Shown piece by piece: positions 2,831 through 58,635 of a stretch of 64,000 nt of DNA. The translations under genes were made by a program, and so were the position numbers. The first letter of the stretch is position 1. Each line of letters starts with the position of its first letter. The DNA is taken from the IMG/VR virus record IMGVR_UViG_3300045988_080644, one strand, 5' to 3'. Source of the DNA: a virus. The notes beneath the pieces were generated by a model. That model made no database searches, was not told where the DNA came from, and saw only the letters and a list, made by a program, of their open reading frames with translations.

Positions 2831-2945
2831 ATGAGTGAAACAAAAACTTTTGTTGTTCCTGATAATTTAACAGGAAACAACGATAATCTTGCTACTATGG
2901 CAATGATGAATGGAGGTTTTGGAGGAGGTATGTGGAATAACCCAT
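2831..2945 (+). CDS. membrane-anchored Gln/Asn-rich protein, exon 1
   Basis: ATG 2831 gives ...NGGFGGGMWNNP. The frame then hits TGA-TAA at 2957-2962 just inside the intron. Confidence 0.8.
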
Positions 2946-3282
2946 TAACTAAAGAATGATAACATAAGTGGGTTTAAAACTCAGTGAACTCAGGGAAACT
3001 CCTTAGAGCTTTAACTACCAAATATAAATAGTGATATTTATATGGATGAATTAACTACTCATGTATGGTAATAAGGTTAAAGATTGGACAATCCTGAGCC
3101 AAGCTCCCTTTTAGGGAGAAGGTGCAACGACTATCGAAAACACATCAAATGATGGAAGTGAGTAGAGTAAGGTTCAAGTGAATCTGAAGTGCTGAGTACT
3201 CTTAAAAGAGTAATGATATAGTCTAAACTTTATAGAAATATAAAGATAATATGTGGAAACGACATATTAGTAAATAATAATG
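2946..3282 (+). ncRNA. group I self-splicing intron, ORF-less, 337 nt
   Basis: P1: exon AACCCAU (2939-2945) pairs with GUGGGUU (2968-2974), with a U2945-G2968 wobble at the 5' splice site. P10: CAUAA (2963-2967) pairs with 3' exon UUAUG (3283-3287). P4: CUCAGG (2989-2994) with CCUGAG (3093-3098). Hairpin CUCCC/GGGAG at 3104-3118. P7: GACUAU (3129-3134) with AUAGUC (3218-3223) inside an S-element-like GAUAUAGUC. The last intron nucleotide is G3282. Removal restores the frame (length = 1 mod 3) and gives MWNNP-F-MYLVWMYIMRW. Confidence 0.85.
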
Positions 3283-4133
3283 TTATGTATCTCGTATGGA
3301 TGTACATTATGCGCTGGATGAATAATGGTTATGGAGACCAGGGTGGAGATCCAGCAGTACAAAGACAGCTTCAAACTCTCTAGGATTAGATGCAAGATAA
3401 TCACAATTCAGATTTAATTATGTAGGCTATAAAGGGAAATAGTTCTGCTTTACAAGATTTAACTACTAGATTAAGTTGTGATGCTAATGCCATCTAGAGT
3501 GCAATTCAGAGTGTACAATCTAGTATAGCTAATGTGGGTAGTTAGGTAGGATTTTCTTCTGAAAGAATAATTAATGCGGTAAATAGTGGAGATAGTGGTA
3601 TTATCCAAGCTCTTAATAACTGTTGCTGCTCTACTTAGAAGGAAATTCTTAAAATGGGTTATGAGAATCAGATTAACAACTAGAATCAGACTTATTAGTT
3701 AACTAGTTAGTTAAATGGTGTAAATAATGTAATTCAGAATGGATTTCGAGACACTAATTATGCCACTTAGCAATAGACTTGCTCTTTGTAGAATACAATT
3801 AAAGATACAACTACTATTAATACTAATGCTATTTTAGCTAAGTTAGATGCTCTTAGTACTTCGGCTTTATAGGATAAGATTGAAGCTTTGCGTGAAAGAA
3901 ATAGTGAGTAGGCTACAGCTATTAATAATTCTCAACAAAGCGCCTTATTTGCTTAGATGCTAAATGCTGCAACAACTCCTATTAATGCCGCTGTAAGTAA
4001 TTTAACTCAAGAAATAGCTAGTATTTAGTGTAAACTTCCAAATACAGTAACTTTACCATATTCTTGTGCTACTGCAGTTCCTACCTCTTTAGCATATAAT
4101 TTATATGGAGCTAATACAGGTGTTTGGGCATAA
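3283..4133 (+). CDS. membrane-anchored Gln/Asn-rich protein, exon 2
   Basis: Frame-0 ORF with no start codon of its own, ending at TAA 4131-4133. It contains many in-frame TAGs in Q-rich context (LQTLQDQMQDN...). Spliced product is 321 aa. Confidence 0.8.
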
Positions 4134-6047: not shown

Positions 6048-6455
6048 ATGGGAAAATATTTTAGTATTGCAGAATTAACTAAGAGTGAAACTGCAAATAA
6101 AAGAAAAATTGACAACAAACCTACTAAAGAAGTAGAAAATTGTCTTAATTAGTTAATAGATAATATTTTAGATCCATTGAGAAAAGCTTATGGATAGCCA
6201 ATTATTGTGTCTAGTGGATATAGATGTCCTGAGTTAAATAAAGCAGTCGGAGGTGCTAGAACTAGTTAGCACACACTCGGCTAGGCTGCAGATATTCATA
6301 CTAAATCTAATTCTAAGGAAAGTAATAAACAATTATTTGAACTTATTAAATAGTTAAAGCTTCCTTTTGATTAGCTAATTAATGAGTATAATTATTCTTG
6401 GGTACATGTCAGCTATTCTCCTAGAAATAGAAGACAAATCCTTAATATTAAATAA
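6048..6455 (+). CDS. endolysin, peptidase M15 family (D-Ala-D-Ala carboxypeptidase-like / L-alanyl-D-glutamate peptidase type)
   Basis: 135 codons with six in-frame TAGs. The signature SGYRCPELNKAVGGARTS-Q-HTLG-Q-AADI ... WVHVS gives the H-x6-D ... H zinc triad. Two of the TAGs fall inside this motif, and the SQH Gln is TAG 6267-6269. Confidence 0.85.
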
Positions 6456-9412: not shown

Positions 9413-10834
9413 ATGTTAGTAGCAAATTTTGTAACAAACCATGCAACCATGGGAGATACACGAACTTACGAAGATTTGAGTAAGTTTTTAGGTGAAAGAC
9501 CTCACCGACTTGGAGTAGTATCCAGACTCTATCCAGAATTGACAGCTACATTCTTGACAGAGGCACTGCGAAATGTTTATTATGGTGATTCTAAGCCAAG
9601 TAAGTATCAAAGTATCGATTCCACTTACTTTGAGTGGGAGGTGGAAACTAATTATATTAAACGTGTTCCATTTGCAGCTGAACCAGTTGGTGATGGAGCA
9701 AACGGCTCTGAGATTGAAATGATTTTCCCAGAGAATTATTATCGTTTGCATGAAATCTTCAAGATTGAAAGTACTGGTCAATAGTGTTTTGTTGTTTCCG
9801 ATAGTGTTAGAAAGGCAGATAATATGTGGTCAGTAATGGTTCGCTTGCTCGATGATGATTATTCTTCTGTACTTGATACTGATGGTACACATATTGGTGA
9901 TTACACTTATTTTATTGGTAATGCTAAACCAGAATTGCATGAGACTGGTTGGGTTAAGTATCAAAGTAATGTAGAAAAGATGCGTAATTATATGAGTACT
10001 ATTCGTGTATAGGATACATATAGTGCTAAATATGCATTGATGGAAGATACATTTATCAAGATTGGTAAAGGAGAGAACCAGGGATGCCTTACTGAAAAGA
10101 TTTACAAGCTGGATCCTATGAAGAAGAATCTTATCGAGAACTTCTTGTATGCAAGAGAGAATATGATTTTGCTTGCTAAGGGTACTGTAGGTGTTGATGG
10201 TAAGACTACATTAGCTGATAAAGCTACAGGAAGACCTATCTTCATTGGTGATGGTGCTATCCCTCAAATTGAAAGATTTGCAAGTAAGTATTCTGCAAAT
10301 AGAATTACAATAGGTACATTCCATACAGTAATTTCTGATATGGTATCAAAAGCAGATAAGCCAACAGGTAATCATTTCTGCTTTATGTGTAATGAAAAAG
10401 CTTGGGCTATTGTACAAAGAGTACTTGGTGAGTATCTTTCTACTAGAAAGACTGATGGAGCTTATCTCTGGTCTAAGCAAGGTGAAGGAAAGTATATTAA
10501 AGTAGGTGCTACATTCGATGCATATGAGTGGGGAGGCAATACTATCAGTTTTAAGGTTGATAGAACATTGTCTAGAGAGTACCAAGACCCATATTTCTTG
10601 TGTATTGATTTGACAACTGGTAAGACATCTACACAACCTCCTATTCAAATGTTCTCATTGAAGGGTAAAGACTACATTTTCAACGAAGTTCTCGGTGTAG
10701 GTGGTCGCTCAGGAGGTGAAAGTGGTGTTGTAAGTTCACCTGTAGCCGGTGGTCTTATGACAATTTGGGGATATGCAGGCATCGCTGTATTTAACCCTTA
10801 TAAATCATTTATCCTTAAAGCTAAGGAATATTGA
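9413..10834 (+). CDS. major capsid protein (inferred, HK97-fold class)
   Basis: Track fragments 9413-9784, 9824-10012 and 10037-10834 share frame 2 and are separated only by TAG 9782-9784 and TAG 10010-10012; the gene ends at TGA 10832-10834. It is 473 aa, locally higher in GC, has very few TAGs, follows the scaffold gene and is followed by a hairpin. Confidence 0.7.
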
Positions 10835-11837: not shown

Positions 11838-12029
11838 ATGACAGCTAGGTAGAATTAAAATTAATTTATTATAAAATATATTGTATATAGAACTACTTGT
11901 TTAATAAACAATAAAATTTATGTTGGAGTACATCATACAGATGATCCTAATATATTTGATGGCTATTTAGGTAGAGGTTTATGGAAAAATCATACTCGGT
12001 ATATAAAAAATCCAACTCCAACAATATAA
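11838..12029 (+). pseudogene. decayed GIY-YIG homing endonuclease remnant
   Basis: Frame 0 reads ATG 11838 MTARQN, then TAA, N, TAA, then FIIKYIVYRTTCLINNKIYVGVHHTDDPNIFDGYLGRGLWKNH... and stops at TAA 12027-12029. YIVY-x10-KIYVG matches the GIY-YIG signature (compare I-TevI GIYQIKNTLNNKVYVGS). Only about 55 codons remain, far short of a functional enzyme. Confidence 0.7.
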
Positions 12030-12290
12030 ATTAATACTGCCCACTTATCTAGTAATAGGTAAGCAGTAGGGAGCAAAAACGGTGGAGGCTGTGACGCTAA
12101 TACCGTGGTAAATTATTTAATAATATAAATAATCACCGTAACGCATAGGAATTGAACCTAAATAATAGAATATAATATTCCCAAGAGTGTTCCCCTTCCT
12201 AAGAGATTAGGAAGAATATGTATGCTGGACTAAAACAAATAAGAAGTTTTAGAGCTATAGGATAAAAAGCCTATAGGGTAACAACACGAG
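11847..12290 (+). mobile_element. putative group I-like intron (or free-standing dead HEG plus structured leader); boundaries provisional
   Basis: This is the only long non-coding gap in the window apart from the intron at 2946. It holds the HEG remnant plus a GC-richer ~260-nt tail with perfect hairpins (12195-12214, 12255-12276) and a 12079-12085/12133-12139 pairing. The downstream ORF lacks an ATG. A candidate P1 pairs ACAGCU (11841-11846) with GGCUGU (12087-12092), giving a U-G wobble. G12290 precedes the exon, and the spliced frame is preserved (MTA-IFEATL...). I could not identify a canonical P7. Confidence 0.4.
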
Positions 12291-13433
12291 ATATTTGAAG
12301 CAACTTTAATAGAATTGAGTAAGATTCAAGCTCCAGCTCTTAAACTGTACGAATTTAATTACCTTTTTAATAAGGCGATTAATTAGTATATTAATAAAGT
12401 ATATAATGTATATGATACTAATCAGCAGACTACTGATGATTTAAGAGTCTTAAAATCTACGGCTTATTTAAAACCTCATAAGTATGGTGTGACTAGTTCT
12501 AACAAGACTAAGCCATACAATAACTATACTGGAGGAGGTACTAATCCCACATATGATGGACAGAGTCCTTCTGCAGATATATAGTATGCAACTGCCAGTT
12601 CTTATTTAAGTGCAGCCCATTCTTAGATTCAATCTTTGAATGGTGCTACTTATGAGGTATTTATGCCCATTGATTATTTACATATGCTTAACTGTGTATG
12701 TATCTATTATGTTGCAAAACAAAAAGATTGTTGGGATGCAGGTTCATATATTCAAATTCCTGCAACTCGACTTACTGCGGATTCTTGGAGTTAGATTGTA
12801 ACTGATATTTACAATAGACCATCTCCAATGCGTCCGTATTATTATATACATAATCAGGCTTCTAGTATCACTATTCCAACTGACCCAGTTACTGCCGGAA
12901 CAGTAGGAGAATCTAATCCATCTGGTTATACTGGCACTGATATGCCTATAGGTGGTTATAAAGTAACTAGTGATAATGGAGCCGTTGCTACTAATACATC
13001 AGATGATTCCGGAGCTGGTTCTAACTTCTAGAGAACCTTTAAACTTAAAAATGGAGAAGTTTCAAAAGATATTTCTTTAGTAGAGAAACCAACTGCGGTA
13101 AGAGTTGCAAATCCAAGCAATGTTCGTTGCGAAATCCGCTATGGTAAAGACGATTCTCTCTTCTAGTTAGTAGAAGTGCAAATTGATTATGTAAAGAGTC
13201 CTCAATTTATTCGTTTGACACAAGAATAGATTGATTTAACAGAAGATACTTCTCAAATTATGGAGTTTCCAGATTATGTAAACCAAGAGATTATAAATGA
13301 GTTGGTACACTTAGTTATGGAGCATTCAAATGATCCAAGACTGGCAAATAATATTTAGATGACTAATACTATTGCCCGACCAACTGGACAGTAGTAGGCT
13401 GCACCTCAATAGTAGGCAGCTCAACAGTAGTAA
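12291..13433 (+). CDS. structural protein (about 380 aa) with Gln/Ala-rich C-terminal tail; N-terminus uncertain
   Basis: Frame 0 opens at 12282 after a TAA, and the first in-frame ATG is more than 100 codons in. The N-terminus is either exon 2 of a split gene or starts at TTG 12315. Track fragment 12828-13031 is in frame. The gene ends ...CAG TAG TAG GCT GCA CCT CAA TAG TAG GCA GCT CAA CAG TAG TAA (13389-13433). Confidence 0.65.
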
Positions 13434-37138: not shown

Positions 37139-39006
37139 TATTTAAGTTTCAATAGGGGGGAACTACTCCTCCCTTTGTTGCTTATTAGCCAGTTATAGTG
37201 TCTGATAAGCGAACTTCAGCTATTCCAGAAGAAGCCGTAGCTGCTAAAGTAGCTAGTGATGCTGATAAGGGTAAATTAACTAGCAAAGATTTATATACTA
37301 TGCTTAAAGAAAAGCTTAAAGGTTTACCTAGTGACGTAGATGTAGCTATGTGGAAACTTCAATCTGTTGAAGAGTCCCTCAATTTAGATTTTTTTCATGA
37401 TTTTACATCTAATGTAGAAAATAGGTATTTAAATGCTTTACAAACTATGAATCAACTTTCATTTAGTAGAGAATAGTATGATAAGGCTTTAGATAATGTA
37501 AAATCTAATGGAGGACTTAATGAAGCGGCTATAGATTAGTATGGTCAAGTATATATGACTAACGGTAAAGACTATAAGTTAATGTCTCCTGAAAAAGCTA
37601 AATAGTCCGGATGGAAACAAATGACTAATTAGGATTTACTCTATTTAAGAGCTAATGACCCTAGTTTGTCGGGAAAAGATGAGATTTTAAACATAGTTAA
37701 TAATGGTATAGGAATAGATAAGGTAACAGAATATATTCAAAAATGTATTCAAGGATTAGGAGCTTCTAAATCTGAAGAAAATCTATATGCTAATGTTAAT
37801 GCAGGAACTATATTAAAGGGCTTAAATGATTTTAAATAGGCGGTAGCTTAGTCTGGAAATTATGATGCCACTGTTCAAGATCTATACAGTGGTAAATTAA
37901 TGACTAAAGATTCTGCAGAATAGGCTCAATAGGCATTAACTTACATATATAGAAGTTTGCCTAATAATATGAAATCCCTTTTAAAAACAAGAACAAAAGG
38001 GGGTACAGATGATGAAGCTTTAGTTATGATAGGACAATTAATCAGTTCTAAGACTTCTCCTGAAAAATCATTTGAACTTAAATTAGAAGATACTGCTTTA
38101 GACCATTAGGAAAAATCAGGTAAAGGAGATAAAGATCCTCATTCTATAGAGGGTTTATCTATGAGTCCAGTAGATATGTTACAAGCAGGTTATGGTTAGA
38201 AGAATGATTTTACTATTTAGACAGCTGCAGGTGCTTCTAATGGTATATAGATTCCTACAGTACAAATGCCTATAACTAAGAAGGGCGAGGGTATTGGCAT
38301 GGCATCATTAAGTGATGTAGCATCCAGCGATTATGCAGGTTATCTAGATTTTAGTAATGCTTTTATGGGGGATGTTTAGATACCACAAGCAGGAATGTAG
38401 AATATAGCTATAGATGGTACTGCTTTATATACAGCTTATTTACCTTTAGACATGTAGTATTTTAATGACACAGGTTAGAAAAGACCTGATATAGCTATGT
38501 TAGGTAGATATAAATAGGCACAGAATGAAATAAGACAATCAGGAACTAAAGATCCAAGATAGATTAATGCCATCTATAAAAATCATAATTTACCAGTAAT
38601 GTACAGTCCTAATGGAGATATTTTAACTAACTATATCAAGTTTGGTATAGTAAATGGAACCGCTTTAGATAATGCCTTTGGTGATGAAGCTAAAGTAGCT
38701 GATTATTTATCAGAAACTACTGATAAAAATACAATAGCTAATACTCTTAATATTTTAAATAAGGGTAGGGGTGAAAAAAATAAGGTAGAATATGATGAAA
38801 AAAGTTGGTGGGATTCTATATCTCCTGTATTTAACGATTATACTCATGTCTATAAAGGAACTATATTTATGCCTATTAATGATGATTACTTTACTTATTC
38901 GGCAGCAGCAGGTTCTAAACCAACAACAGCTTAGGCAGAAATGATTGAAGCTAGATAGTAGGCTGCTAATAAAACTCGTAATTATGTAAATCCAGGACAA
39001 CTTTAA
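37135..39006 (+). CDS. virion cargo-type protein (623 aa)
   Basis: ATG 37135; track fragments 37198 and 38599 share frame 1, and the gene ends at TAA 39004-39006. The N-terminus is MIFKFQQGGTTPP. Confidence 0.7.
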
Positions 39007-42000
39007 TGAAAGAAAATGATATTATATTAAATATGTTAGCTAACCCTAAATTTACTCTTGAAGATTTTCAAGCTGTAGGTTTAAATAGTGATAACACTGG
39101 GTTACAATCAGAAGATAAATATTTACAAAGTGATAAGATTAAGTCTGTTAGTGCCTTTTAGGATTCTAATGGGCAGTTTGATAAAAATAAATTTCATAAC
39201 TTTTACTAGAGTGCAGGATAGTTTTATAATTAGATGTCTAATGATGATTATGAGAAAGCTATTTTAGAACAAGCACAGTATAGTAAAGATAATATATGGG
39301 TAAATCCTAAGAAAAGAACTGTAGATTATAAACCAACTTTAGTTAAAAGAGCAAATCCAACTTTAGTAACTAATAGTTTGGAATAGATGGGTCAGATGGG
39401 AAAAAGGACATTATCTACTTCTGAAATAGCTTAGACACAAGCTGTAGTAAATCCTATTACTGGTGAGAAATCTGCTAGCCCTAATGATTCTTTCTTTTCT
39501 AATCTATTTAATACTTTAGTACTCGCTTCTTATGATAATGATGTAGTAGATCCAAAGACAGGAGAAGTATTACATAAGAAAGGTGACTTAAAATATAATG
39601 AGGATGGTTTACCTTATTATGAGACTTTATCAGGACGTGATGTACATGATAAATAGGTTCTTAATAAGATGAACACTCTTACCACTGATGGTTCTGTATG
39701 GAATAAATTTGACTTTTTTGATTCTGATGATTTAGATTAGAAGGGAATTGGCTCATCTTTATTAAAGAATGCTGCATTAGTGGGAAGTATGTTTATTCCT
39801 TATGTGGGTCCAGTAATTACTGGATTAAGTGTAGCTACTTAGACAGCAGGATTACTAGCCACATTAGGTAAACTTGTTGCAGGAAATGATAATCCTACTT
39901 TAAACAATATATAGGGATGGGCTAAGTCTGTTAATAGACAATCTGCTACAGAATATGCTTAGCAACATACTTGGTGTGCTGAGAACTTTATTAATATGAT
40001 TGGTGATACCATAGGATAGTTAGCAGAATAGCGATGGATATTTAAAGCAGCTCCTGTATTATTTGAAGGAAAGGATGCTTGGAAAGTAATGTCTAAAGAA
40101 GGCTATGATGCTTTAAAGAAATCAAAGCTTGCAGAGTTACAAAAAACATCAAGTTTAACTACTGACAAATTATTGTAGGATGCAGTAAGTGAAAAGAATG
40201 TACCCTTATTACAATAGTACATGACTGAACTTAATGCTATTAATGAAACTAAAGCTGCTAAATATGTTGATGATTTAGTTAGAAAAGCTAACAATATAGG
40301 CAGTCCTCTTTCTAAAGCTTACATGATAGGTATTACTGTATAGGATACTTATGGTAATGCAAAAGCTGCAGGAGCTTCAGACTTAGAGGCGGCTTTATTG
40401 ACCCTTGGTTATGCTGGAGGTGAAGCTTGGATTCTTAATACTGGTTTAGGAGAATGGATATTACCTGAATTACATATTGACAAGTTTAAAAATAAAGCTA
40501 TAGCTGAAGCTTTAGTTAAACCAGTTAATGATGCTAAAGAAAGATTAGAATAGACTGGAGACAAGCAAGGATTTGTAAAAGAATTACTCAAGATAGGTAG
40601 AAATGTAGCTACTAACGTATATGCAGAAAAAGCTATGGCTAAGAAATCTGCTGAAGTTATAGGAGCACATGCATTAGGTGAAGCATTTGAAGAAACTTCA
40701 GAAGAGTTATTAGCAGATGCTTCTAAAGCGATACTTAATATAACTAGATGGTTAAGAGGAAAAGATGCTCTTAATTTCTGGGATGGAGATAATGCTTTAG
40801 ATAGATATACTATGTCTGCATTAGGAGGTTTACTTGGTGGAGGGATAACTTCTGCTGCAACTAATTTTAGTTAGGTAAGAAGCTTAGCTGGAATGGATAA
40901 CTCTGCAGCTATGTAGCAACTCTTATATATGGCTAATAATAATTAGTTAGGTGATTTCTTGAAACAAGTAGATAAAATGACACTTGGAGACAAGAATAAA
41001 TCTGCTACTAAAACTATATATGATTCAGAACAAGGAGTAATATTTGCAGAAGGAACTAAAGATGATAATCAAGACCTTGCTGCTAAACAAGCTATTCGTA
41101 ATTAGGTTAAATTTATTGACAATATATTAACTACTAATGGTGCTAAGATAAGTACTGACTCATTACTTAGTAAATTAGCTATGGAGGATTAGTAGGATGT
41201 TCTTAGGAATCTTAAAATAGGTAATTTAAAAAATACCAATGTTATAGGTACATATGCTTAGGACTACTTGAATTTACAAGCAGATTTAATAACAGCCTCA
41301 GCTTAGTTAAAAGCTATTGATGATGAAATAGGTGATGTAAAAAGTGCCGCAACACCAGAACAATAGAAAGCAAGAACAGATAAAGCTGCTGAAATTGACG
41401 GCATTAGAGGTAGATTACAGGAATATCTTAATGGCACCATCTCTCCTGATTTTATTAGAGATGCTGTATTTGAGATAAATCCTCTGATTAATGACGGTTT
41501 TGTTATTACTTCATTAGAACAATATACAAAAGCTAAAGTAGGAAAATTACCTAATTAGCTATCTGATACTGAGCTTACAAAACTAACTGAAGAGTTTAAA
41601 AACTACATGAACAGTGATGGTAAAGAGTATACACATACTGCTGCTGCAGCTTACTAGAATATGATGGAATTGGGTTCTCCTATAGTGCAGCAGTATTAGG
41701 AAATAATTAAATAGGCTAATGTTAATAATAATGCTCAATTTATATAGGATTTTAACTAGTTTATCACTAACTATTTAATTAAGTTGGATAGTATTGATAC
41801 TACTGACTAGGAGGCTTATCAGACTAAAGCTTAGTTATTAAATGATTCTCTAGCTTACGGAGCACTTAGATAGATGGCACAACCTTATCTAAGTGAGGAT
41901 TAGAGAAATCGTCTATAGAGTATTGCTGATAGTACAGAGACTGATCCAAATGTTATAGCGCAATTAAATCAAGAAGCTAATAATATTCTTATGGAAACTA

Positions 42001-45000
42001 TCTCAACTAATGTTGATAACCTAGTTAAACCAGTACTATAGTAGGGATTCATACATCCTGAAGCTAGAAAAGCATTACTCTAGGGATTGTCTAAGTTAAA
42101 GGATTTAATTGCAACCAAAGCAGATAATGACTTTATGGAGGTTTACCCAGGACATCCAGATTATGAGGAAGCAAAAAAACGTCGTAAAGAGTCTGTAGAA
42201 AATATTCATCAAATTGATGATTTATAGAAAAAAATTGAGAAACTGCCAACCACACCTGCTTTAGAGTTTATTGATAAATTTAAAATAGGGGCAACCAATT
42301 CTTAGTTAAAGTTTTCAGACCATTGGTAGCAGACTATGGATTTATTAGATAACAATAAGGATGATATGTCTGAATTTGGAACTGATGAAGTATGGGAAGC
42401 TAATAATCAAGAGGCGCTTAGACTAGCTAAAGCCTTTAGGTCAGTACTTAATGGTATGAAAGTTGATAATGCAGATATAAATAACCCAACAGGTTATTCT
42501 AGAATGCTTAATTTAGTATATTAGAAATCTGCACAGAAAAATTATGTACCTTTAGCAGAAATAAGTACTTAGGAAGCTAATATGATGCTAGAAGATGTCA
42601 GCAAAATTATAGCTAGACTAGAATTTGCTGATACCTTAGCTAAAATGAATAGGGGTTAGAAGCTTAAAGAATAGAACAAAGTAGCTGCTAGAAAAAATCA
42701 ATTATTATATAATGGTACAAAAAGACTTATTGACACTTTATCAGACTCTGATTGGAAAGATACTAGTATAGCTGATTTAAAAAATACTTTTAATAATATT
42801 ACTACAGAAGTTAAAGATGCTTTAGAAGGCGAGGGAGTTAAATAGAGTAAAGAAACTAGAGCTGCAGTAGAAAAATATATGATGCAGTTAGATAATGCTA
42901 TATATGATTTCTTTCAAGCTAATAAGGATTCTAAAGGGGAATTAAGCGTTGAGAAAATAGGAAAGTTATTAAAGAAATTTGCAGGCAATGCAGGATTCTT
43001 TTAGAAAACTAATAACATACTTAATGAATCTACTAAGTCTCTAAGTGATAATTCTTATATTTGGTATTTAGCATCTAGAGCAGCAGTTAGAGCATCTGAT
43101 TTTTATGGTTCCTATAAGAAGGCAGTAAATGACAAAGTTGCTCCTATTGCTAGTTAGGAACTTGCAACTTATTTAGGAGTAGCAGCTATAGCTAATATGA
43201 ATACTCTTAACAAGTTTGTAGATGCATATAGAAATACTGTTGTTTAGGAATTTAATAATTTATCTGAAAAAGAGAGAACTGACTTATTAAACCAGTTTGA
43301 TAATAGTGGTGAGGCATATTCTAAGGATTTACTTAAGTACTTCGGGGCACATGATGTTCTTCCTCAATATAAGAATATGATATTTATAGAAGGTATTGCT
43401 GGAAGTGGTAAAAGTAAAGCAGTATTTAGAAATGTAATTAATACTATAAATCATATTAATCCAGAATACTTAAAAAATGCTTATTATGTACATGAGACTA
43501 GTGATTCTGCATAGAAAGCGGCTGAAGACCTAGAATTACAAGGATAGACTTTTGGACGAGTTGATTTTTTAAAACATTTATCTTCTGAATGGAAAAATAT
43601 TAGAGATAATAGTAAAGACAGAAAGAATTACTTATATAAAGATTCATATAAATTTGATCCATTTACAGGTAAATTAGAGAATACCTGGAAATTAAATAAA
43701 ATAGCTGATGCTCCTAAGGTAATTTTTATAGATGAGATTTCTCACTATAATTAGTAGGAAGTCAGTATGATAGAATAGTGGGCAAAGGAACATGGAACTA
43801 TTGTACTTACTGCTGGTGACTTTGATTAGGATACATCTATTGCTTTTATAGATGATGTTAAATATAAGGGAAATCCTGTAAGTGTAACCTTAAATAGAAA
43901 TAATTTTATAAGAAGTCCTAAGTTAGGGGTATCTTTACGTACTTTAAATAAATAGCTTACCAATTGTACTAAAATGATGTAGTTAGCTATTTAGAATCTA
44001 AATGATGGTAAAGATGTAGATTTAAATTTCACTTATCTAGATAACGATCCAGAGCACTTAGGTCTGTTTGGTGTAAAAATAGCTAAGCCAGTTAATGTCT
44101 TAAAAGGTTTAAGCAAAGAGGAACTTGATAGAATTGTTCCTACTATAGATTTGATGGTATCTACTTCAGGTGATGAGAAAATAGGATATATTTATCATGA
44201 TACTAATACTGAATTATATAAGTTATTAACTACTAAATATAAGGATAAAATAATACCATATAAAGATTCTGATGCTTAGGGTCTGGAAGGTAAATATTAT
44301 ATAGTAGAGAATGATATTCATTCTAATGTACCTGATTCTGTCTATTTAAGATCTTTGTATACAGGTATAACAAGAGCTTCACAGGGAGTTTTAGCCATAA
44401 CACCAACTACTACTAAGGGTATTAAAACTATAGGGACATCCTAGGATAAGAGATTTTAGTTAGAGACCATAGGTGCTGAAGCTATTAAACATGCTTCCAA
44501 AGAAAGATTAGAATAGTTAGAAGATATGGTTGATGATAATAATGCCATAACTAAATTAGAAGCACCTACTAATACACCTACTCCTACTAAGCCCCAAGTT
44601 TCAGGTGGTTTACTTCCAATTTTAGCACCTGCAAGTGTTCCTCCAGCTAATACTGCAACTAGTTAGGCTGATGCTAATATAGAAGTTGAGAATTTTAAAA
44701 AGCTTATATATAATCTTGATGGCACTACAAATTCAATAGCTAAGAAATTAGATCAGGAATTTGATATAATAAGTGTTGAAGCTAAAGAGGATAATGGTAA
44801 TTGGATTCCTACTGTTAAGTTAAAGAATGGGGATGATGAGTTTGGTGTTCCTTTAGTAGATTTCAATAAAGAATATACTTTATAGAAGAAGGATGATAAA
44901 ACAACTGTTCCTCTTTACACAGTTGGACAAACATTTTTATTGCAAACAGGTCCTACAGACACTTAGATAACTATTGATGAAGTCTTATCTGGAGAACCAC

Positions 45001-48000
45001 TTACATATAAGGTACACGATAAAGAGGGTAAATCCTTTGAAATAACATAGGAATCTATTTAGAAATTGTATAAGGGAGAAGTCCCTACTGAACCTATAAC
45101 TCCATAGATTACTACCATAACTACTGGAATGGAAAATACTTCAGAAGAGGAATATGAATCTGCAATATCTCAATCTAATATAGAAGACACTGTTGAGACT
45201 CCTAAATCAGTAGGCACTCTATATACTATGAATACTTACTTACCAGGTATGAAAAATGACAATGGTAAAGCTGTATTTGATGATGATTCTCCAGAAAGTC
45301 AAGCTAGACATGATGCACGTATTGATGGATTTGTAGGTTTATCGAGAATACTAAAGACTGATGATTGGAAGGAGTTAGATGACTACTTTGCCTACTGTAG
45401 AAACGCTCTATTTACAAGTGAAAGGAATGCTGATGCAGCTAAATATTTAGCTAATATTTTAGGATTAACAGGTAATGTTAATATTAGATATGCCTTAAAA
45501 AGTTCTGCAGGTAGAATTAATTCTTCAGACCCTCGCTATTATAGATATGATTAGGGAGAAAATGAAAAATGCGAGTATTTACATTCTGATAGTAAGGATG
45601 CAAACGATGCTATGAGAAAAAAGGTGGTAGCCATCTTATTTAATGATGGAAAGCCAGTTCTTGAAATCCCAGTAGCATCTTTAAATTCACCTATTTCACT
45701 AATTTATTATACAGATGAAGAAGGCAATTTATTACATCCTGATTTAAATAAAGCTTATACAGATGCATTAATTAAGTATTAGGGTAACAAGAATTAGAGT
45801 GATTTAGCAGTATAGGAAGTAATTAATTAGTTTGATAAGAGTGGAACAGACTAGGATATAGTTGACTTATTTAAAGTGTATAGATTTACAGGAAATGGAA
45901 TATTCTTTTTTGATGAATCATTTAATCTGGCTGAATAGTCTCCTACAGGAATTATACTTACCGGAGAAAAAGGTAAGTTACAATAGAATGGTAGTTATTA
46001 GACTTCTAATAAATTTATAGATGTGTCAGAGTTAGCTAAGAACCCTTAGTTTAGGGTATCCAAAATATTGACATCTAGGGACGGTTTAGTTAATGGAACA
46101 CATGCTGTAAACCCAGGTCATTCTTTCATTCTAGTTGGTAATCCTAAGGAATTTGCAGGAACTACTGATTTAGTTAATTAGTATGAAAGACAAATAGCAG
46201 ACCCTAAGGCACCTAAAAAAGTATCTTTATATTATGTAATGCCTCCTAAGACTACAGTATCTGCTTGGCTTACTAATTAGCATAATTTATATTTAAATAC
46301 CTTGGGATAGAACAAATAGGTATATAATATAGGTAATGACTTCACAGGATATAGAGTATTAGACTGCTTAGATAAACAAGGTCTTTTAGATTCTATACCA
46401 TCTATAGGAAGTACTGCACAAGGCTATAAGTCGGGACAAGATGTATTAGATTCTATTAAAACAATACTCTCTAATGTTAGAGCTATAGAAAGTAAATGGA
46501 AAGGTGATTTAGCTTTAGATAACTCTAATCAGATAGAGGGTAGAGGTGAGGAAGAATACTATTAGATGCTAATTAACTAGGGAATGAAAGAACCTGATGC
46601 TAGACGAGTAATGTCTATCAAAGAAGTTAATTAGTATCTTAGACAACCTAGTTCATTATTATTTTAGGAAGGACGTACCAATAATTAGGTTCTTAATGCT
46701 TACTTAACTTGTATGGTTTGGAATAGGACTAAGGCTATCGGTTAGAAGGAAGTTATTACATATCACCCTGAAGTGCTTGATTAGATATAGTAGGCGTGTG
46801 AAAATGCAGAGGAACCTTTAAAAGACATATTCTATAAAACTCAATATACAGATAAAGCTCATGGTTCGTTCCTTGAAATATAGTAGAGAGCTAATTGGTA
46901 GCTAGAAGGCATAAACGGAGATGCAGCATTTAGAATTAATGCTCGTATCGACACAACTAATTTTACATCAGATGAACTTCCAATAGCTAGAATTGCTGGA
47001 GAAATAGAATAGAAAGCCATAAGAACTAAAGATGGCAGGGAAGTAAAAGTATGGAGTATGACTCCAGATGCTAAATAGAAATATGAGGCAGTTTATTTAG
47101 ACTAGAAAAAATTAGAAAATAAACCAGACCCTATTGATGAGTATGCTCCTTATATGCAAAAAATAGGAATATCTGAAAAAGAATTAGCTAACATAATAGC
47201 CTTAAACCATGGAGACAAATCTGCTATACAAAGAGATATAGCTAGGTGGTTTAATTCTTAGGATGTTCATAATTTTGGATTCACATATAATGGCAATATT
47301 TATTTATTTAATAATTCTGAATATTCATTAATTTCTAGACCTACAAGCTTAGCTACCACAGATAACTTAGTTTTAAAGGGAGTAGATAATAATGGAGAAC
47401 ATGATATAACAATCACCTTCAATGTAGATGGTAATGGTAATATTACATCTATGTAGGGTAATGTAACTACTTTTAAATAGGTAAGTGCTGGACGTTAGAT
47501 TCCTGATTATATGGAGAGTATGGAAGAGCAATTAAAGGATAAGAGGTCTTCGTGGGAATACTATAGGGATGATATTCAAAGGGAAGACCATGGAATAACT
47601 TATATAACAGGTATTCCCTATCAATCAACTATAGAACCTTCCATAAACTTAGCTGTTGATTCTGGTGTACTGCCTAAAAAGTATGCAAAGTATTTAAATA
47701 AAGATAGACCTGGCTCAATAGCCTTAGAGGACTTGCAAGAGATAATTGATATATTTAAGAAAAAAGGTATTAATAGTCCTACGAATTTGCTATCTTATAT
47801 TAAAAATGATGGAATTACTGTATCTAAGGAAGAATGGGAAGAAGCTTAGAATGGTATTAGGGATTCTATACCTCCACTATTAGCTAGAAATAGTGTCTTT
47901 TTAAGAGAGTATGACAAATCTATTTCAGCTCAAGGTAAACGAGATCTAAAACGTAGTTTAGGGACTGCGAAAAAATTCCTATCCACAGTTAAAAAGAAAG

Positions 48001-48251
48001 GAGACAAGGTTAAAGAAGAAGCTTGGGAAAAAGTGATTTCTATAGTAGAATCAATAACGTCTTCATCTACCCCTACTATATCATTAGAAAATGAAGATAC
48101 TGTTATTTAGAATGGTAAAAGATATACAATAATTGATAAAGAAAACTTAATTGGAGAAGATGAGGTTACTAAAGAATAGGTAACTTTAACTACAGATAAT
48201 TTAATTAAAGAGGAAACTTAGTGTATTCCTGTTAAATTTAATATGATTTAA
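39006..48251 (+). CDS. giant virion protein (3081 aa) with embedded SF1-helicase-like P-loop NTPase domain
   Basis: TAATG-coupled ATG 39006. Track fragments 40635, 42336, 45129 and 47511 share frame 0. I read 39006-40700 and 47850-48251 and found only TAG in frame. The gene ends at TAA 48249-48251. Walker A GIAGSGKS (43392-43415), Walker B VIFIDE (about 43720), TAGDFDQ, and ...YTGITRASQGVLAI. Confidence 0.7.
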
Positions 48252-48252
48252 A

Positions 48253-51200
48253 ATGGCAAAATGTTCACTTAAAAAATCACCTAATGGAGCGTTTGGTGGT
48301 TACAGTTAGGAATCTATAGAAGAATTAGAAGACTTTGTAACCACGGCTTTTAATGAAGCTCTTATGAATGCTGGAGATGGATCAAACGGAGGTTTAATTA
48401 AAAAAGCAGTTCGAGATGCATTACATAAAATTGGTGATTAGTATTCTATGAATTAGTTAGATAAAATAGCAGAAATTACATAGAAGTTAATTGATAATTC
48501 AGAAGATTTAGTATTTTTGAATGAGTACATACCAATAGAGGGTATAAAGAATGCAATAAATCCTAAATATAGATAGACTGTAAAAGAATCAAACTCTTCT
48601 CTGGGAGAACCAGAGGAGGGTGAGACTCTTGCCAAGAAGTCTCAATTCTTAGATGATGTATGGGGCACTAATGTACGATTAAAGAACGCCTATAAACAAG
48701 AAGTAACTAATTAGTTAATTAATAAGTTTATTATAGATAGAGAGCATGGTGTAATTGTAAAAAATGCCGGGGACGCTAACCGAAATATTCGGGACTATAA
48801 GAATAAATTATGGGGAGATATTAAAGAGTATTTAATTGGAAAAGGCTCATTAGATGAGTTTACTCCAGATATTTATGAAGATGGAGAATATACTGGCGTC
48901 TTTGAAGATGAAGAGGTCAGAAAAGCAATAAGAATTTTTGGTTCTTGGGATGCTCAGAAGATACAATCTGATAGAGATACTGATGATTATAAAATATTTA
49001 AGAAATGGTTTACTCTAAAGAACTTTGACAACTTTACTAGAATGTTGCTAGGTAAAGCTATTATTATTAAACCCGGAACTGAAAATACATTTAGTAATGA
49101 AGATAATTACTCCTTTGCTACCAAAAATGATGCGGTAATAACAAGCTGGAGAACTAATGAAGATGTTGTACTAGAATAGGAAATTGGAGCATTAGCACAA
49201 TCCTTAATTAATTCTACACCATATTATTAGTATAGAAATGATGCAGAAACAGGCTAGTATATAAAGTTCTCTGATTTCTATTAGATTATAACTAAATTAA
49301 AGGAGTCTGTTTATAATCCTGTAACTTCTGATATTACATTTAGGAGATTAGATAATAGATATTAGAATTTATTTAATTCAGGTTTACTTACTCAGCATGA
49401 ATTAGATCTTATACAAGGTAAATCTTTAAAAGATTTAATATGTAGTATTAGAGAAAATCCTGCATTATATAGTAAACTATTATTTACAGCTATAATTAAT
49501 GATAAAGATACCCTAGTGAGATTAAATTTCACAGATGAAGATTTAAATAAAATGTACTCTTTATATAAGGGTATATTTGCTCCTAAGGATAAGTCTATTC
49601 AGGCTATTTAGGCTAAAGAAGATTATAGAGCTTAGAACTACTATAACTTAATAACTTAGGTAGTTGATTCTATCAATTCTGTAAAATTCCTATAGTATAA
49701 TATTGAAGATGGAGTAGTAAAAACAAGACTCTTAAAAGATTATTCTGCTGAAAACGTAAGAAGATCTATAGAGAATAATATAGCATATACTAATTCTTCT
49801 CATATTTTATCTTCTTTATTTAAAGAAAGAGAAGTTAAATTATATAATATATAGACATTAGCTGATAAGGCTAACACTTTCTCAGGAATTACATGTACTA
49901 TTCCTGACATTGGTATAATTGTAGAGGTCAATGAATTGGGAAATTACATTTCTTACAAAGATGAGTTTGGCAAGCTTTTAAGTTCAGAGGAAATAGAAAG
50001 GTTAATCGATAATCCGAAAGTAGAATCTCTATGGCAATTTATTGATGATAACTTATCTATTGGAGTTTCTTATGATACAGATTTGAGAAAAGCACTTAAA
50101 ATGTACTCGGTGGGTCATACTATATAGGATTTATTAAAATTAACTTCTACAGTACTTCTTAATAAATATATAGCTAATGTAAAAGGAGAAAGAAGTCATG
50201 GTAAAGCTGCATTAAATGACTTATTTGATAATATATATAAGGGCTATCCCAATAAACCTAAATATAATTCTGAATTAATGGAAATGGGATTATATAGCGA
50301 TGCTATGACTCCTATTCTTGATAATATATCTAAAGCTAAAGCACTCACTTCTGGTATTATGTAGTCTGCTTCAGTTAAAGATGCTGATGGTAAAACCCTA
50401 TCTCAATAGACTCTTAGTCGTTTATTAGGTAACTTAATTCCTTAGTATAATTGGATTAAATCTTACAATTGGGTAGGTAATGATAAGGTTAATCCATTCT
50501 CTAAGATGTCCCTTATGTAGCCTGGTGTATTTAGAGGTATATATACTACAAGAGAGGTTAAGTCTCCTTATGGAAATAAACCTCAAACATAGTTTACAGT
50601 ATCTGAGTTTAGTTAGAGTGCCTTTCTATATGATTTCGTTGATGGTTTTACTACTAAAAAGGATGTTCGAGGAGATGTAGTTATTGGTAATGGAAAAGTA
50701 GGATTACTACCATCTGTAAACTCTGATAAAAATACTATTAACAGAATGTGTGTAGATTTGATGTAGAAAGTTGATTCTAAGCATCCGGAACTTAATGGTA
50801 AACAATTTATAGACCTTGATTCTAAAGAATTACAAACATTAACTAGTGAACAACTTGGACACTATTTCAAAGCAGTTAATTAGAATATACAAAAAGATTT
50901 TGATAAGTTATTTAATTGGATAAACGGTAAGTATCATTTAGCTATATATAGTTTAGAAGACATTAATAGTCGTTATAGTAATCCTGCTGATTAGTTATAT
51001 CAATGGGTAAAAGAGTACAATGACACCCACAATAATGTTATATAGTTAATTGATTAGACTCACTATTCTATTGATAAAAAAACTAAGAGACTTAAATCCA
51101 ATATGCTTTTAAAAGGATTAGAGACTAGATTTTCTGACCCTAGTAAGCTAGCTAAATTTATGCAGTGGAAGGAGACAGAAGTTTTAAAATCCTTATTAGA

Positions 51201-54200
51201 TGAAAATGTAGAAATTCGTCTTATTGACGGTACCAACTCTTCTGCTAAGACCTATTTAAAAGACAATTATAAAGATTGGATTCATAATGGTAAAATGGTA
51301 TTTGCTAAGGTTAACGGTAAGGATATATTAACTAAATAGGACTTAATTAATTTAGGACTAGATATTAATGATCCACATTCTTGGAATATAGAATTACATC
51401 CTATGCTTAGTAAGTATAATGCGTTAGACTATTTCTTTACTTCTCAATATATGTATGCAGGAGTAGGATGTCATACTAATCATCCTTCTAAGGCAGATTA
51501 TAATGTCCCTATTATTTATAAGCATCCAAAATTAGGTTTATCTACATTCTTATAGAATAATCCTCAAGCTGCAAACTATCTCATGGATTTTGATGACTTC
51601 TTTAATGAAAAAAGAGATGCATTTATTGAAGCCCAAACTCATGTAGAAAAATCTATCCCATTCTCTGATGATGAAGGCTATGTTTACTATGACACTAATC
51701 CAGAATGGACAAAAGCTAAAGAAAATTATTTAATATAGAATTAGAATAATCCAGAATTTTAGGATTTTGTAAAGAAAGCATGGAATGAAGCTAAACTTAT
51801 AGCTAAGGAATAGAATAAAATTTTATTAAATTCTAGTTCTATTGTATTAAAGATGTTCCCACAGGACTTTAGTAAAGTATTAACCATGTCCTAGGAAGAA
51901 GCAGTAGCACGTGGTATGGATCCAGATTGGAAAAATACAATTGATACTGCTTTAAATGGTTTAATAGTACCTAAAATAGAATTCAAATCAGGTGAATATT
52001 TTGACAAAGCATTTAGCTCTTATTTAACTAAAGAAATGGATAAACTTCTTCAAAATGAAACTGAAGATGAAGCATCTCGTTTTGCAGCATAGCATAAGAG
52101 AAATGTATCTTATACCGCAGCCATGCATGAGTTTCAATTAAATCAAATAGATGGCGTGCCTTCTGTCTATAATATGGCAATTATGTCAGATTTGAAGTCT
52201 GATGTGTATACAGTATAGGCAGATGTGGATAAAGCTACTAATTTTGATGGTGCTACCTTTGTAAATCCATTTATAGTTATTTGGGAGAACAACTCCCTTA
52301 ATGGAGATAAAGCAGGTATAAATAAAAAGCAATTTGTACACTTTTATGATAGAGCCACTGGTACAGGAGGTATTATTAAAACTGCAGGATTTGGTTTAAC
52401 TAATGACAAAATAAGACAGTTTGACTTCTACCGTAATATGATGTATAATATGACCGGTAAGAAATGGAAAAATGCTGATGGTTCTCAATATATTATGCGT
52501 GATGGGGGTATTCTTAAAGACTTTGAAGACAACGACATTGACTATGGTGATTTCTACTATAGAAAAGGGGCTAAATTTTATAAGAGACGTATTTAGTCCT
52601 ATGATGGAAATAACACTTATTCTATATTAGAGCAAGAAGTTGATGAAAATGGAGAAGCAAAGGGTAATGAGAATACTATTCAAGTATAGGTAAATTCTAA
52701 CTATGATGTGTGGCAAATGTTTGGAGGTATGAATTCTGTAGACTTCTTAGATGGAACTCTTCAAGGTTCTGAAAAGTCTATAGAAATGACTGCACATGCT
52801 GCCAATATTTATGGAACTAAAAAAGAGGGTGTTATCAGAGCGCAGACAGCAGATGACATTATCTAGCCTATGAAGCATTCTGATATACATTATATGCCTA
52901 CTATAGGTGCTGTTAAACACGGTGCTGCAAACATAAATCCAGTCTCTTCTTTCTTTAGTAGAAATGGTCTAAGTTTTATGTAGGTAGAAGTGAGATAGGC
53001 TGGTATTTAGCTTGATAAGGAACATCAAGCTGATAATGAAGACTTGTCTCTTATGACTTAGGTTATTTCAGCTGCTTGTTCTATGGGATACACTAAGGGA
53101 GAGGCTACTAATCTATATAATGCTTTATATAGTCTATCTAAATAGGCTACTAAGGCATTTAGAGACGAAATGGGAGACCTATTAAATGGATTCTCTGATA
53201 GCTTTAATGCTGCGGTAACAGAAACTATTATGAAGTCTTTGATTAATGCTTCAGCTACAGACGGTGATATGCTATAGTTAGTAGCAAAGAATATTATAAA
53301 GAAAATAAATGCTGAAAAATAGTTTTCTATCAATAAAACTAACTACGCTGACATTGATAAAGAAATTCCTTATAGTGATGCTGCTGTTTCTGCTAAGGTA
53401 GTTAGTTCTTTAACCGCTGCATTAACTAAAGCTGGAATTAAAACTAAAATGCCTGGTCTTTTAGCAGTATTAAATCCAGCTGAAGGTATTATAAAAATGT
53501 ATAAAGTGCCAGCCAAAGACAAAGATGGCAATATTCTATTAAATGAAGATGGTTCTACTGTATATAAATATGTAACTATGGATGCCATAGAAAAAGAGTA
53601 TGATACAGAGAATGCTTTTGAAATAATGGAATAGTTACAAGCAGAAACAGGACCACTTAGTTATAATACTGATGAAACTGGATTAATAACTAGTATGCCT
53701 GATGTCAAAATAGGACGTAAATACTTAGTTACTTTCTCAGATGGGGTCAACAAATCTACTAAGGTTGTAAATGTGACATTACCTCATAGAGTGGAGTCTG
53801 ATACTAGTACTGTATTTTATAATAATGTTCCATATCAAGAATAGACTATGGGATATAGAAAACTTATAGACTATTTAAATGGAATAGTTAATGAGGAAAC
53901 TGGAGTTACTAACCAAATTACAGAAGTTAAGGAGTTTTTAATAGGAGGTCAGGACTTAGATAGTTATGATGTAAAATTTTAGGATTCTTTAGGTAATAGA
54001 TGGCAAATGTCTGATTTAGATATTGTACAAGATTATTTTGAAGCAAGAGAATCTAAAGACCCCAGAAGAAAAGTATTAGAAATATTATCTAAGTATGATA
54101 AAGACTAGGAATTAAAAGCTGCTATAATTAAGGAATTTAATGAGTCTAATAATTCAAATAAAGTTAAGATTGTCAATGATTTAAATGATAATTTTAATGG

Positions 54201-57200: not shown

Positions 57201-58635
57201 AGAAAAGTTTTTATATGATGAAGTATACTAGTAGGAAAAAATAGCGTAGTATGATAGAATTAAACAATCTTATAATGTTTTACGTGTTCTTACTACAGAT
57301 CCTTAGTATAAAGGTTATATGGAAACCTTATATATGGCTCATCAAGGTCTGTTAAATAAGTAGTTAAAGTATAGATTTACAGTAGGTAAAATTGCAGATT
57401 TTATTTAGAAAAATAAAGTTACTGGTAATTTATAGTAGTAGGTACTTAAAAATGGTAACAATTATGTTGACTATAAACTAAGACAAAATTGGATGCGAGA
57501 TAGTAAAATACAGATTACTATTCCTGGCAGTACCGATAAAATGAAAACTTATGCGTTTATAGGAACCCCAAATAGTTATAGTTAGTTATACTTTGATAAA
57601 ACTATACAACTGGGCACTGATATGGGAGATGCTAATTTTAAATTATGGATGGAGCAAACTCTTATTCCTAGACTTAAAGCGGACCCAACATTAAAAGATA
57701 ATATATTTATATAGCATTTAAGTCCTATAGTTAACTCAAGAACTAATTTGGGTATGACTGCGGTTTATTATGGATTAAATGGAATAAACATGTTGCCTTA
57801 GTCTGACGCTGAAAGAGAAATGTTTGATATACATAAAGACGCTTTTAATAAATTAGCAACCTATGACTTGATTAGGGACGCTAAAGGTCATACTTTTGCC
57901 ATAAAAGACTTATTTTATCTATATTCTTTAATATGTAATAACGGTAAATTTGGTCCTACTTCTCTACATAAAATATTTGAGGATTATCTAGATTCAGGTC
58001 TAGCCTAGAGTTATAAACACTTTATAGCAGAAAAAGATAGAGACTTAGATTTCTACCAGGATTTAGTAAAGACATGTACAGATGAATGGCTTGCACCTAT
58101 GAGTTCTCCTTATGTTGGAGGTTCTAAAGTACTCAAATATAAGGATTAGAACAATGAATAGATTCTACTTTATAAAAAGAAGGAAAAGAAGTCAAAAGGT
58201 GGATATGACTATGATGTCGAGTAGGATATGGATGACATCTTTATGAATGATATGGGATTTGATCCAGAAGGTGGAAAAGACCCTATGGCAGAAATCAACA
58301 ACTATGTTAAATAGGAATCTAGTGCCCTAGCTAAAAGAGACTATAGTTTCTTCTCAAATCCTGAAGTTAAATATAATACATCAGGTTTTCAAGTATTATC
58401 AACTAAATCAGAACTAATTAATTAGCATCCTATAACCTACGAAGTTAGAGATGGTAAACCTGTATTAGTAAATATAGGGGGTGATGGGGAGATTGCAAAA
58501 AAGTTTATGAAATTAATGAAAGATCGTAAGGGAATATTACCTACTAAGTAGATTCTTGGAACAGATGGATTTACTGCAGTAATTAATGAAGAATAGATTG
58601 AATCAGAATTAAATAGTATAATAAATTGTGGATAA
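48253..58635 (+). CDS. giant virion RNA polymerase-like protein (3460 aa), crAss/YonO-type double-psi beta-barrel
   Basis: ATG 48253; track fragments 49936, 51103, 52225, 53449, 55303, 56416 and 57820 share frame 1. I read 50128-51102 and found only TAG in frame. The gene ends at TAA 58633-58635. AARIPAQSQQSFMAQRV-(about 25 aa)-GSDLDIDAV places DxDxD at 55300-55314, with the same R-to-Asp spacing as RAPTLH...NADFDGD of RNAP beta-prime. Confidence 0.7.

Follow-up and report, generated by a model that had tools for sequence, protein, structure and literature searches.

Known phage introns and the present locus

In tailed phages, group I introns of subgroup IA are represented by those in td, nrdB and sunY of T4, by the SPO1 DNA polymerase intron with I-HmuI, and by those of the Staphylococcus phages Twort and K. 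Goddard and Burt are said to have described, in 1999, a homing cycle that passes through invasion, fixation, endonuclease decay and loss.

The intron described here was found in a stretch of viral DNA of 64,000 nt (IMG/VR virus record IMGVR_UViG_3300045988_080644; hereinafter referred to as the window, with positions counted from its first base). It resembled the tailed-phage IA introns in its RF00028 core, in the putative P7.1 and P7.2 helices between P7 and P3', in the AAGAUAUAGUC-type J8/7-P7 segment, in the U·G pair at the 5' splice site, and in the guanosine at its end (omega-G). By blastn, the core was 70–83% similar to unannotated or intron-associated stretches of Staphylococcus, Bacillus, Aeromonas (DNA polymerase), Vibrio, and Clostridium phages, and this similarity, together with the P7.1/P7.2 insertion, points to an intron of the subgroup IA type. 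The HNH/NUMOD4 endonuclease encoded by the endonuclease-bearing relatives was also of the usual phage type. Unlike the tailed-phage introns, however, the intron of the window interrupted a gene of family phrog_16490 in a crAss-like phage with recoded TAG and lacked P2, which was absent from the drawn structure. A further difference was that the endonuclease ORF of its relatives was placed in the P1 loop, straight after the 5' splice site, with its stop codon abutting the guide sequence.

Among crAss-like phages, dense group I introns have been reported in the large-genome Zeta group, and MCP, PolB, primase, ATP_43b, and TerL were named as intron-bearing genes (Yutin et al., 2021; PMC7886860); the gene interrupted here is not one of them. 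Those introns were found via endonuclease domains (Yutin et al., 2021), so that ORF-less copies like that of the window would go uncounted. The initial annotation of the locus had stated, from the same study, that introns are frequent in some crAss-like lineages, which proved accurate when checked. As in the Delta- and Zeta-group crAss-like phages, the genome is large (related contigs of 160–195 kb), the late genes show stop-codon recoding, and several introns occur per genome; the context agrees with the crAss-like phages of that study that have large, recoded genomes rich in introns. The intron is of a known kind, ordinary for crAss-like phages, with no departure from known biology, and it leaves the understanding of how group I introns work unchanged.

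Genome context and recoding

All large ORFs of the window were located on the + strand, on which the open reading space increased from 4.2k to 20.9k codons once TAG was read through. TAG was a sense codon throughout the + strand genes (window 1–64000), and the ORFs of 3089 codons (38982–48251) and 3462 codons (48247–58635), for example, contained 105–107 in-frame TAG codons each. No tRNA genes were detected within the 64-kb window, hence no suppressor tRNA there. The capsid gene (9413–10834) corresponded to the Pfam Crass_capsid gene of a relative (L165; related loci are referred to by L numbers), in which a CrAss_Ring_1 gene came next, and its product was only 22% identical to the capsid protein of crAss phage cr4_1. 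An endolysin gene (phrog_894) was found at 6048–6455.

The interrupted gene (2831–4133) is a late gene of a crAss-like phage. Upstream of this gene, at 2672–2740, an inverted repeat precedes a run of T (GAGGAGACGTAGTTAGAGG...CCATTAACTATGTTTCCTCTTTTTATTTTT), an arrangement that looks like the intrinsic terminator of the preceding HTH-protein gene (2488–2658). In cr7_1, a gene annotated as reverse transcriptase (L001:882–1841) was located two genes upstream of the homologue of the host gene.

Identification of the group I intron

The insert at 2946–3282 is very probably a splicing group I intron with its junction at 2945/3283, as judged from comparisons of sequence and predicted structure. Its RF00028 score (72.9 bits) was well above the curated gathering score of 50, with a full match to model positions 1–253 and an E-value of 1.3e-18 on a 601-nt slice, or 1.4e-16 on the whole window with permissive filters. 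Copies of the intron in relatives scored 72.8 bits (L016) and, in an endonuclease-bearing form, 67.0 bits (L004). The intron was AT-rich (G+C content of 34%), and its RNA folded better than 100 out of 100 shuffled sequences (z = -3.4).

A default Rfam run with gathering scores on the whole 64-kb window returned nothing. This was attributed to the speed filters, and the run was overruled as proof of absence by the slice and permissive-filter runs; the miss shows that, at the filter stage, the RF00028 match was less than overwhelming. Under default or large-input filters, true RF00028 matches of 53–73 bits in AT-rich DNA were lost at several loci (window, L004, L020, L023, L169), and the same elements were recovered when slices of 0.6–1.2 kb were searched. 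The negative results of multi-locus Rfam runs were set aside as uninformative, having missed slice-detectable copies as well as an annotated Intron_gpI in phiCD211.

The P3–P9 structure was drawn by hand from the Rfam alignment and the sequence, and its elements are listed in Table 1. The P4 and P7 pairings, the GAUAUAGUC S-like element and the terminal G, all of which had been pointed out in the initial annotation, were present. The helix order P7-P3'-P8-P7' places P7 in a pseudoknot with P3. Compared with the RF00028 consensus, a 54-nt insertion was found between P7 and P3' (within 3143..3185), and this insertion is predicted to fold into two hairpins.

Table 1. Positions of the exons, the predicted intron and its structural elements in the window (paired strands are separated by a slash; A2, alignment of 17 introns described in the text).
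Feature	Position	Strand	Sequence, support or remark
Exon 1	2831..2945	+	38 codons and first base of Phe codon; from ORF list; 97–100% identity to 5' end of uninterrupted homologues
P1 exon strand	2939..2945	+	AACCCAU; from sequence; U2945 is last exon base, opposite G2968
P1	2939-45 / 2968-74	+	AACCCAU with GUGGGUU, 7 bp
Predicted ORF-less group I intron, 337 nt	2946..3282	+	RF00028, 72.9 bits, matched span 2922-3245; precisely missing from intron-less alleles
P1 loop, putative endonuclease-deletion scar, 17 nt	2946..2962	+	Holds in-frame TGA-TAA; 180-aa NUMOD4/HNH_3 ORF here in L004-7, L017/18
Internal guide sequence	2963..2974	+	P10 part 2963-2967, P1 part 2968-2974
P10, 5 bp	2963-67 / 3283-87	+	CAUAA with UUAUG
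P3	2979-86 / 3190-97	+	6/8 pairs with double changes on A2
P4-P6 domain	2990..3123	+	86–96% of cells paired; double changes in every helix (A2)
P4	2990-95 / 3092-97	+	Rfam alignment
P5	3000-02 / 3086-88	+	Rfam alignment
P5a	3009-15 / 3076-82	+	Long P5a extension spans 3009-3082
P6	3098-3100 / 3121-23	+	Rfam alignment
P6a	3104-08 / 3114-18	+	Rfam alignment
P7, 6 bp	3129-34 / 3218-23	+	5' strand GACUAU after J6/7 GCAAC; 92% of cells paired, nearly invariant
P7.1 (putative)	3143-46 / 3151-54	+	Mainly MFE fold of window sequence
P7.2 (putative)	3170-75 / 3180-85	+	Mainly MFE fold; A3170G in L020 keeps pair; 52% paired across families, poor alignment
P8 hairpin	3198-3202 / 3207-11	+	Rfam alignment, A2; C3201U in L020 keeps pair with G3208
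J8/7 and P7 3' strand	3212..3223	+	AAUGAUAUAGUC; fits RF00028 consensus AAGAUAUAGUC
GAUAUAGUC element	3215-3223	+	From sequence
P9	3228-34 / 3239-45	+	Conserved GAAA loop; 6/7 pairs with double changes
P9.1	3248-55 / 3260-68	+	GAAA loop; fold only
Omega-G	3282	+	Terminal intron base; from sequence
Exon 2	3283..4133	+	283 codons including TAA stop; 16 TAG in frame, taken as Gln; P10 formed by first 5 bases

Relatives of the intron were gathered by searching for CAACGACTAN{60,90}GATATAGTC, a pattern present in more than 119 viral contigs. The window intron and the 16 introns that nhmmer aligns over most of their length (17 diverse introns) were aligned with MAFFT, without fitting to the structure, to give alignment A2. 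On A2, 84.6% of cells formed standard pairs, compared with 35–45% when the 3' partners were slid by 1–3 columns, and double changes were found in 39 of the 56 pairs. The covariation score was 0.504, against at most 0.131 in the slid versions. For the core helices P3, P4, P5, P6, P8, and P9, 83–96% of cells were paired per helix. P7 and P10 were invariant in the compared copies and are supported by pairing, not by covariation; the invariance of P7 on A2 arose because the relatives had been picked by its motif. Among near-identical copies, all three substitutions located in helices kept the pairing, namely C3002U (opposite G3086), A3170G (opposite U3185), and C3201U (opposite G3208).

Splice sites and predicted splicing

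The 5' splice site after U2945, with U2945·G2968 closing a 7-bp P1, and the 5-bp P10 between the guide and the first five bases of exon 2 could both be read from the sequence as initially annotated. Comparison with empty sites left an ambiguity of 1 nt (T2946 = T3283), and the junction 2945/3283 was chosen because the U·G and omega-G rules settle it. The exon and guide strands of P1 covaried in 13 intron-bearing copies, five of which had AACCCAU with GUGGGUU and eight AAUCCAU with GUGGAUU; guide base G2972 was changed to A wherever exon base C2941 was changed to U.

Following group I chemistry, the transcript would fold into the P3–P9 core, and guide bases 2968–2974 would pair with the last seven exon bases to form P1. 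A free guanosine held at P7 would attack after U2945, opposite G2968. Next, P10 would form between guide bases 2963–2967 and the five leading bases of exon 2, and G3282 would occupy the guanosine site while the exons are ligated. Ligation would create the Phe39 codon (U|UU) and lead to a protein of 321 aa.

A group I intron that relies on a protein helper, such as a host or phage maturase-like factor, and is not fully autocatalytic is an unlikely reading. The RNA is AT-rich, has no P2 and contains short P5 and P6 helices, and certain group I introns depend on proteins in vivo; on the other hand, the related phage IA introns of T4, Twort, and SPO1 self-splice in vitro. Moreover, no maturase-type ORF was present in the window copy, and two GAAA tetraloops (P9 and P9.1), together with the long P5 extension, could provide tertiary stability.

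Allele states and probable intron homing

At the insertion site, relatives of the window differed in what they carried. The site was empty in L003, L008-14, L019, L022, L025, and L160-164, and it contained a 962-nt intron with a homing endonuclease gene (HEG) in L004-7 and L017/18. In L020/21, the intron measured 414 nt and retained both ends of the insert (HEG remnant). The ORF-less form of 337/338 nt was found in the window, L015 (identical), and L016, and a 328-nt form without 9 nt of the P3 5' strand in L023/24. Empty and occupied alleles were both found in close relatives, showing a presence/absence polymorphism. The additional 625 nt of the long form enlarged the P1 loop, following the 5' splice site and preceding the guide sequence. 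They code for a protein of 180 aa in which NUMOD4 and HNH_3 domains were detected, with TAA as the stop codon. No homing endonuclease ORF was present in the window copy, which has only a 17-nt P1 loop.

The intron core was 98–100% identical among copies whose exons were 79–87% identical to those of the window. Likewise, L004 and L017 shared 98.8% identity in the intron and endonuclease gene and 84.5% in the exons. Since intron identity was far above exon identity, these data bear the signature of a recent horizontal spread by homing. The window copy is probably a non-autonomous derivative of a mobile intron, whose parent would, as in the relatives, carry the NUMOD4/HNH gene in its P1 loop; deletion of the endonuclease gene would have left the 17-nt loop. 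The nested forms of 962, 414, and 337 nt, rather than a rooted history, argue for loss of the HEG and not for its gain. The allele states resemble the cycle ascribed to Goddard and Burt in that all stages are present at one site (empty, 962, 414, 337, and core-damaged 328 nt), in the order that we infer here, and in that intron identity far exceeds exon identity. For phages abundant in the gut, the site adds a clean population-level case of a homing intron and of the decay of its endonuclease.

The nearest relative of the intron outside the host gene (L106) was located in an unrelated gene. The lack of TAG in the endonuclease ORF could have pointed to a foreign origin or to code independence, a reading that was rejected as not significant; half of the Gln codons of the host gene are TAG, and the endonuclease ORF contains only 4 Gln codons (chance of about 0.06).

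The 328-nt form was found in two IMG/VR contigs, 061496 (L023:2616-2943) and 056527 (L024:2168-2495), in which the 9 nt AACTCAGTG (window 2978-2986) were missing between two AACTCAG repeats and the exons were identical to those of the window. With this deletion in the P3 5' strand, the RF00028 score decreased from 72.9 to 52.7 bits, and the two copies are possibly a splicing-defective allele or an assembly slip.

Such degenerate copies, and the ATG at 3285 that directly follows the insert, would suit a decayed intron of group I origin in a dead or dying gene; with splicing lost, the phage would make no more than the 42-aa peptide or a product of exon 2 begun at that ATG. For the window copy this is highly improbable. 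Its core was 99% identical to that of the HEG-bearing form, all helices were intact with exclusively pair-preserving substitutions, and both exons were intact. The allele was also common, its miscalled exon-2 ORF being present on 502 contigs. In addition, the ligated exons were 99.5–99.6% identical at the DNA level to the uninterrupted alleles L160-164, which were recovered from DNA metagenomes. Of the 4–5 differences between these alleles and the window exons, two (at -5 and -2; 2941 and 2944) were synonymous and both fell in the P1 exon strand, where the empty alleles read AAT AAT CCT | TTT and the window AAT AAC CCA T|TT. These two changes improve the predicted pairing of the exon with the guide.

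Split gene and its product

The ORF starting at ATG 2831 (2831-2959) read ...MWNNPLTKE, followed by TGA (2957-2959) and TAA (2960-2962), its DNA being ...ATG TGG AAT AAC CCA TTA ACT AAA GAA TGA TAA; the interruption by TGA-TAA was as described in the initial annotation. The annotation had also called the gene split, with a downstream frame lacking a start codon. The split is upheld, because the homologues possess the 38 N-terminal residues; the lack of a start codon is not, as ATG 3285, 2 nt past the 3' splice site, is the first start codon in that frame. This ATG would permit translation of exon 2 alone, were splicing to fail.

When 2945 was joined to 3283, the sequence read CCA U|UU AUG, with the product ...MWNNPFMYLVWMYIMRW...; the predicted ligated junction is AACCCAU|UUAUG, i.e., AAUAACCCAU|UUAUGUAUCUCG, and the peptide across it ...MWNNPFMYLVW.... 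With TAG as Gln, the ligated exons formed a 966-nt ORF with 16 TAG codons, one TAA stop (4131-4133), and a 321-aa product. The restoration of the frame with a Phe codon U|UU was borne out with one correction, in that the joined exons are open only if TAG is a sense codon.

A search with the spliced protein gave 1141 homologues, the best 120 of which were 75–96% identical. Approximately 100 of the best 120 homologue clusters were uninterrupted and read ...WNNP[F/M][M/I]YLVW... without gap or additional residue, in exact agreement with the predicted junction and length. Another 15 of the best 120 clusters began with MIQSKLYRNIKIICGNDILVNNNV-MYLVW..., the result of gene calls that extend exon 2 back into the 3' end of the intron. 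The homologues were colinear with exon 2 up to the C-terminus. By exact look-up, the predicted 321-aa product was present verbatim in the protein collection, and it is encoded by the uninterrupted L160-164.

Public gene calls give a 42-aa ORF and an exon-2 ORF running into the intron, and recognising the intron restores a 321-aa protein of a large phage family. Although public gene callers report exons 1 and 2 as separate ORFs (e.g., P0089, P0101, P0270), two genes (42 aa and ~282 aa) separated by a structured spacer, or an artefact of assembly, can for practical purposes be dismissed, since uninterrupted homologues join both parts, the insert matches RF00028, the same insert occurs in many independent assemblies, and the empty-site comparison refutes both.

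The host gene belongs to family phrog_16490 of PHROGs, annotated as "unknown function", and the label "virion/membrane protein" that the host protein had been given was not supported. The family is large, with 655 representatives at E <=0.001. Common to its members are an N-terminus rich in Gly/Asn, a short hydrophobic segment, at the exact start of which the intron is positioned, predicted long helices, a CCC motif, and, at the C-terminus, a conserved KCKLPxTVTxPY motif. Against Pfam, nothing was obtained except a sub-threshold match to DUF4116, and no credible match was found among PDB sequences. The AlphaFold model of the host protein, built from a 32-sequence alignment, was poor (pLDDT 61.5, pTM 0.27) and showed long helices, plus a short hydrophobic one spanning residues 38-52. 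Distant crAss homologues bear the unverified GenBank labels "spike protein" and "outer capsid protein/viral fiber".

A second intron in the window

A second split gene was identified at 11838-12304, with an insert of 438 nt at ~11851-12288. The frame 12282-13433 contained no start codon before 12663, and the best 120 homologues of this gene were all uninterrupted, beginning with MTARQ[V/I]FEATLIELSK. In the window, ATG ACA GCT AGG TAG (MTARQ, exon 1) was located at 11838-11852 and IFEATLIELSK (exon 2) started from 12291. The empty allele of L165 reads ...GCTAGGTAGATATTTGAAG..., where the window has 438 additional nt. An AGA repeat permits four placements of the insert; U as the last exon base together with G as the last insert base is obtained with 11851-12288 alone.

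RF00028 gave no match to the second insert, even when a 561-nt slice was searched at E up to 1. Its 3' 220 nt were ~70% similar to sequences located after intron-type endonuclease genes in split genes of cr6_1, Staphylococcus phage 6ec, Leptolyngbya phage Lbo-JY46, and C. difficile phage phiCD211, and a motif search for this intron matched 54 viral contigs. An unfitted alignment of 44 sequences gave the topology P3, P4, P5, P6, P7, P7.1, P3', P8, P7', P9, P9.1. In this alignment, 84.0% of cells paired, compared with 34–44% when slid, and 43 of the 57 pairs showed double changes; a group I-type fold of the second insert is supported by this covariation on 44 relatives. P1 and a guide sequence were sought in the second intron, and none was convincing. 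Within the second insert, an ORF fragment at ~11868-12030 (...KYIVYRTTCLINNKIYVGVHH...) resembled the start of a GIY-YIG endonuclease with a weak Pfam match (E 0.24, 12 bits), and may at most be a decayed remnant.

For intron surveys, these results mean that ORF-less introns escape searches for endonuclease domains, that default Rfam filters can lose a 73-bit match in a 64-kb AT-rich window, and that a neighbouring intron family is wholly missed by RF00028. Opinion is evenly balanced on whether the locus combines a one-site time series of the homing cycle (empty, HEG-bearing, remnant, ORF-less, and core-damaged) in gut metagenomes with near-isogenic intron-plus and intron-minus pairs, whose few differences cluster in the P1 exon strand, and a second intron from a widespread, RF00028-silent phage family. 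If both points held generally, surveys by endonuclease domains or RF00028 would substantially undercount introns in crAss-like and other phages, and the intron or its endonuclease would visibly shape the exon sequence at insertion sites.

In phiCD211 (L169:1501-2038), two tandem introns were located ~20-30 nt apart between the minor tail and tape-measure genes. The first belonged to the RF00028-silent family, and the second was annotated as Intron_gpI; the P3-P5 sequences of the latter closely resembled those of the first intron of the window.
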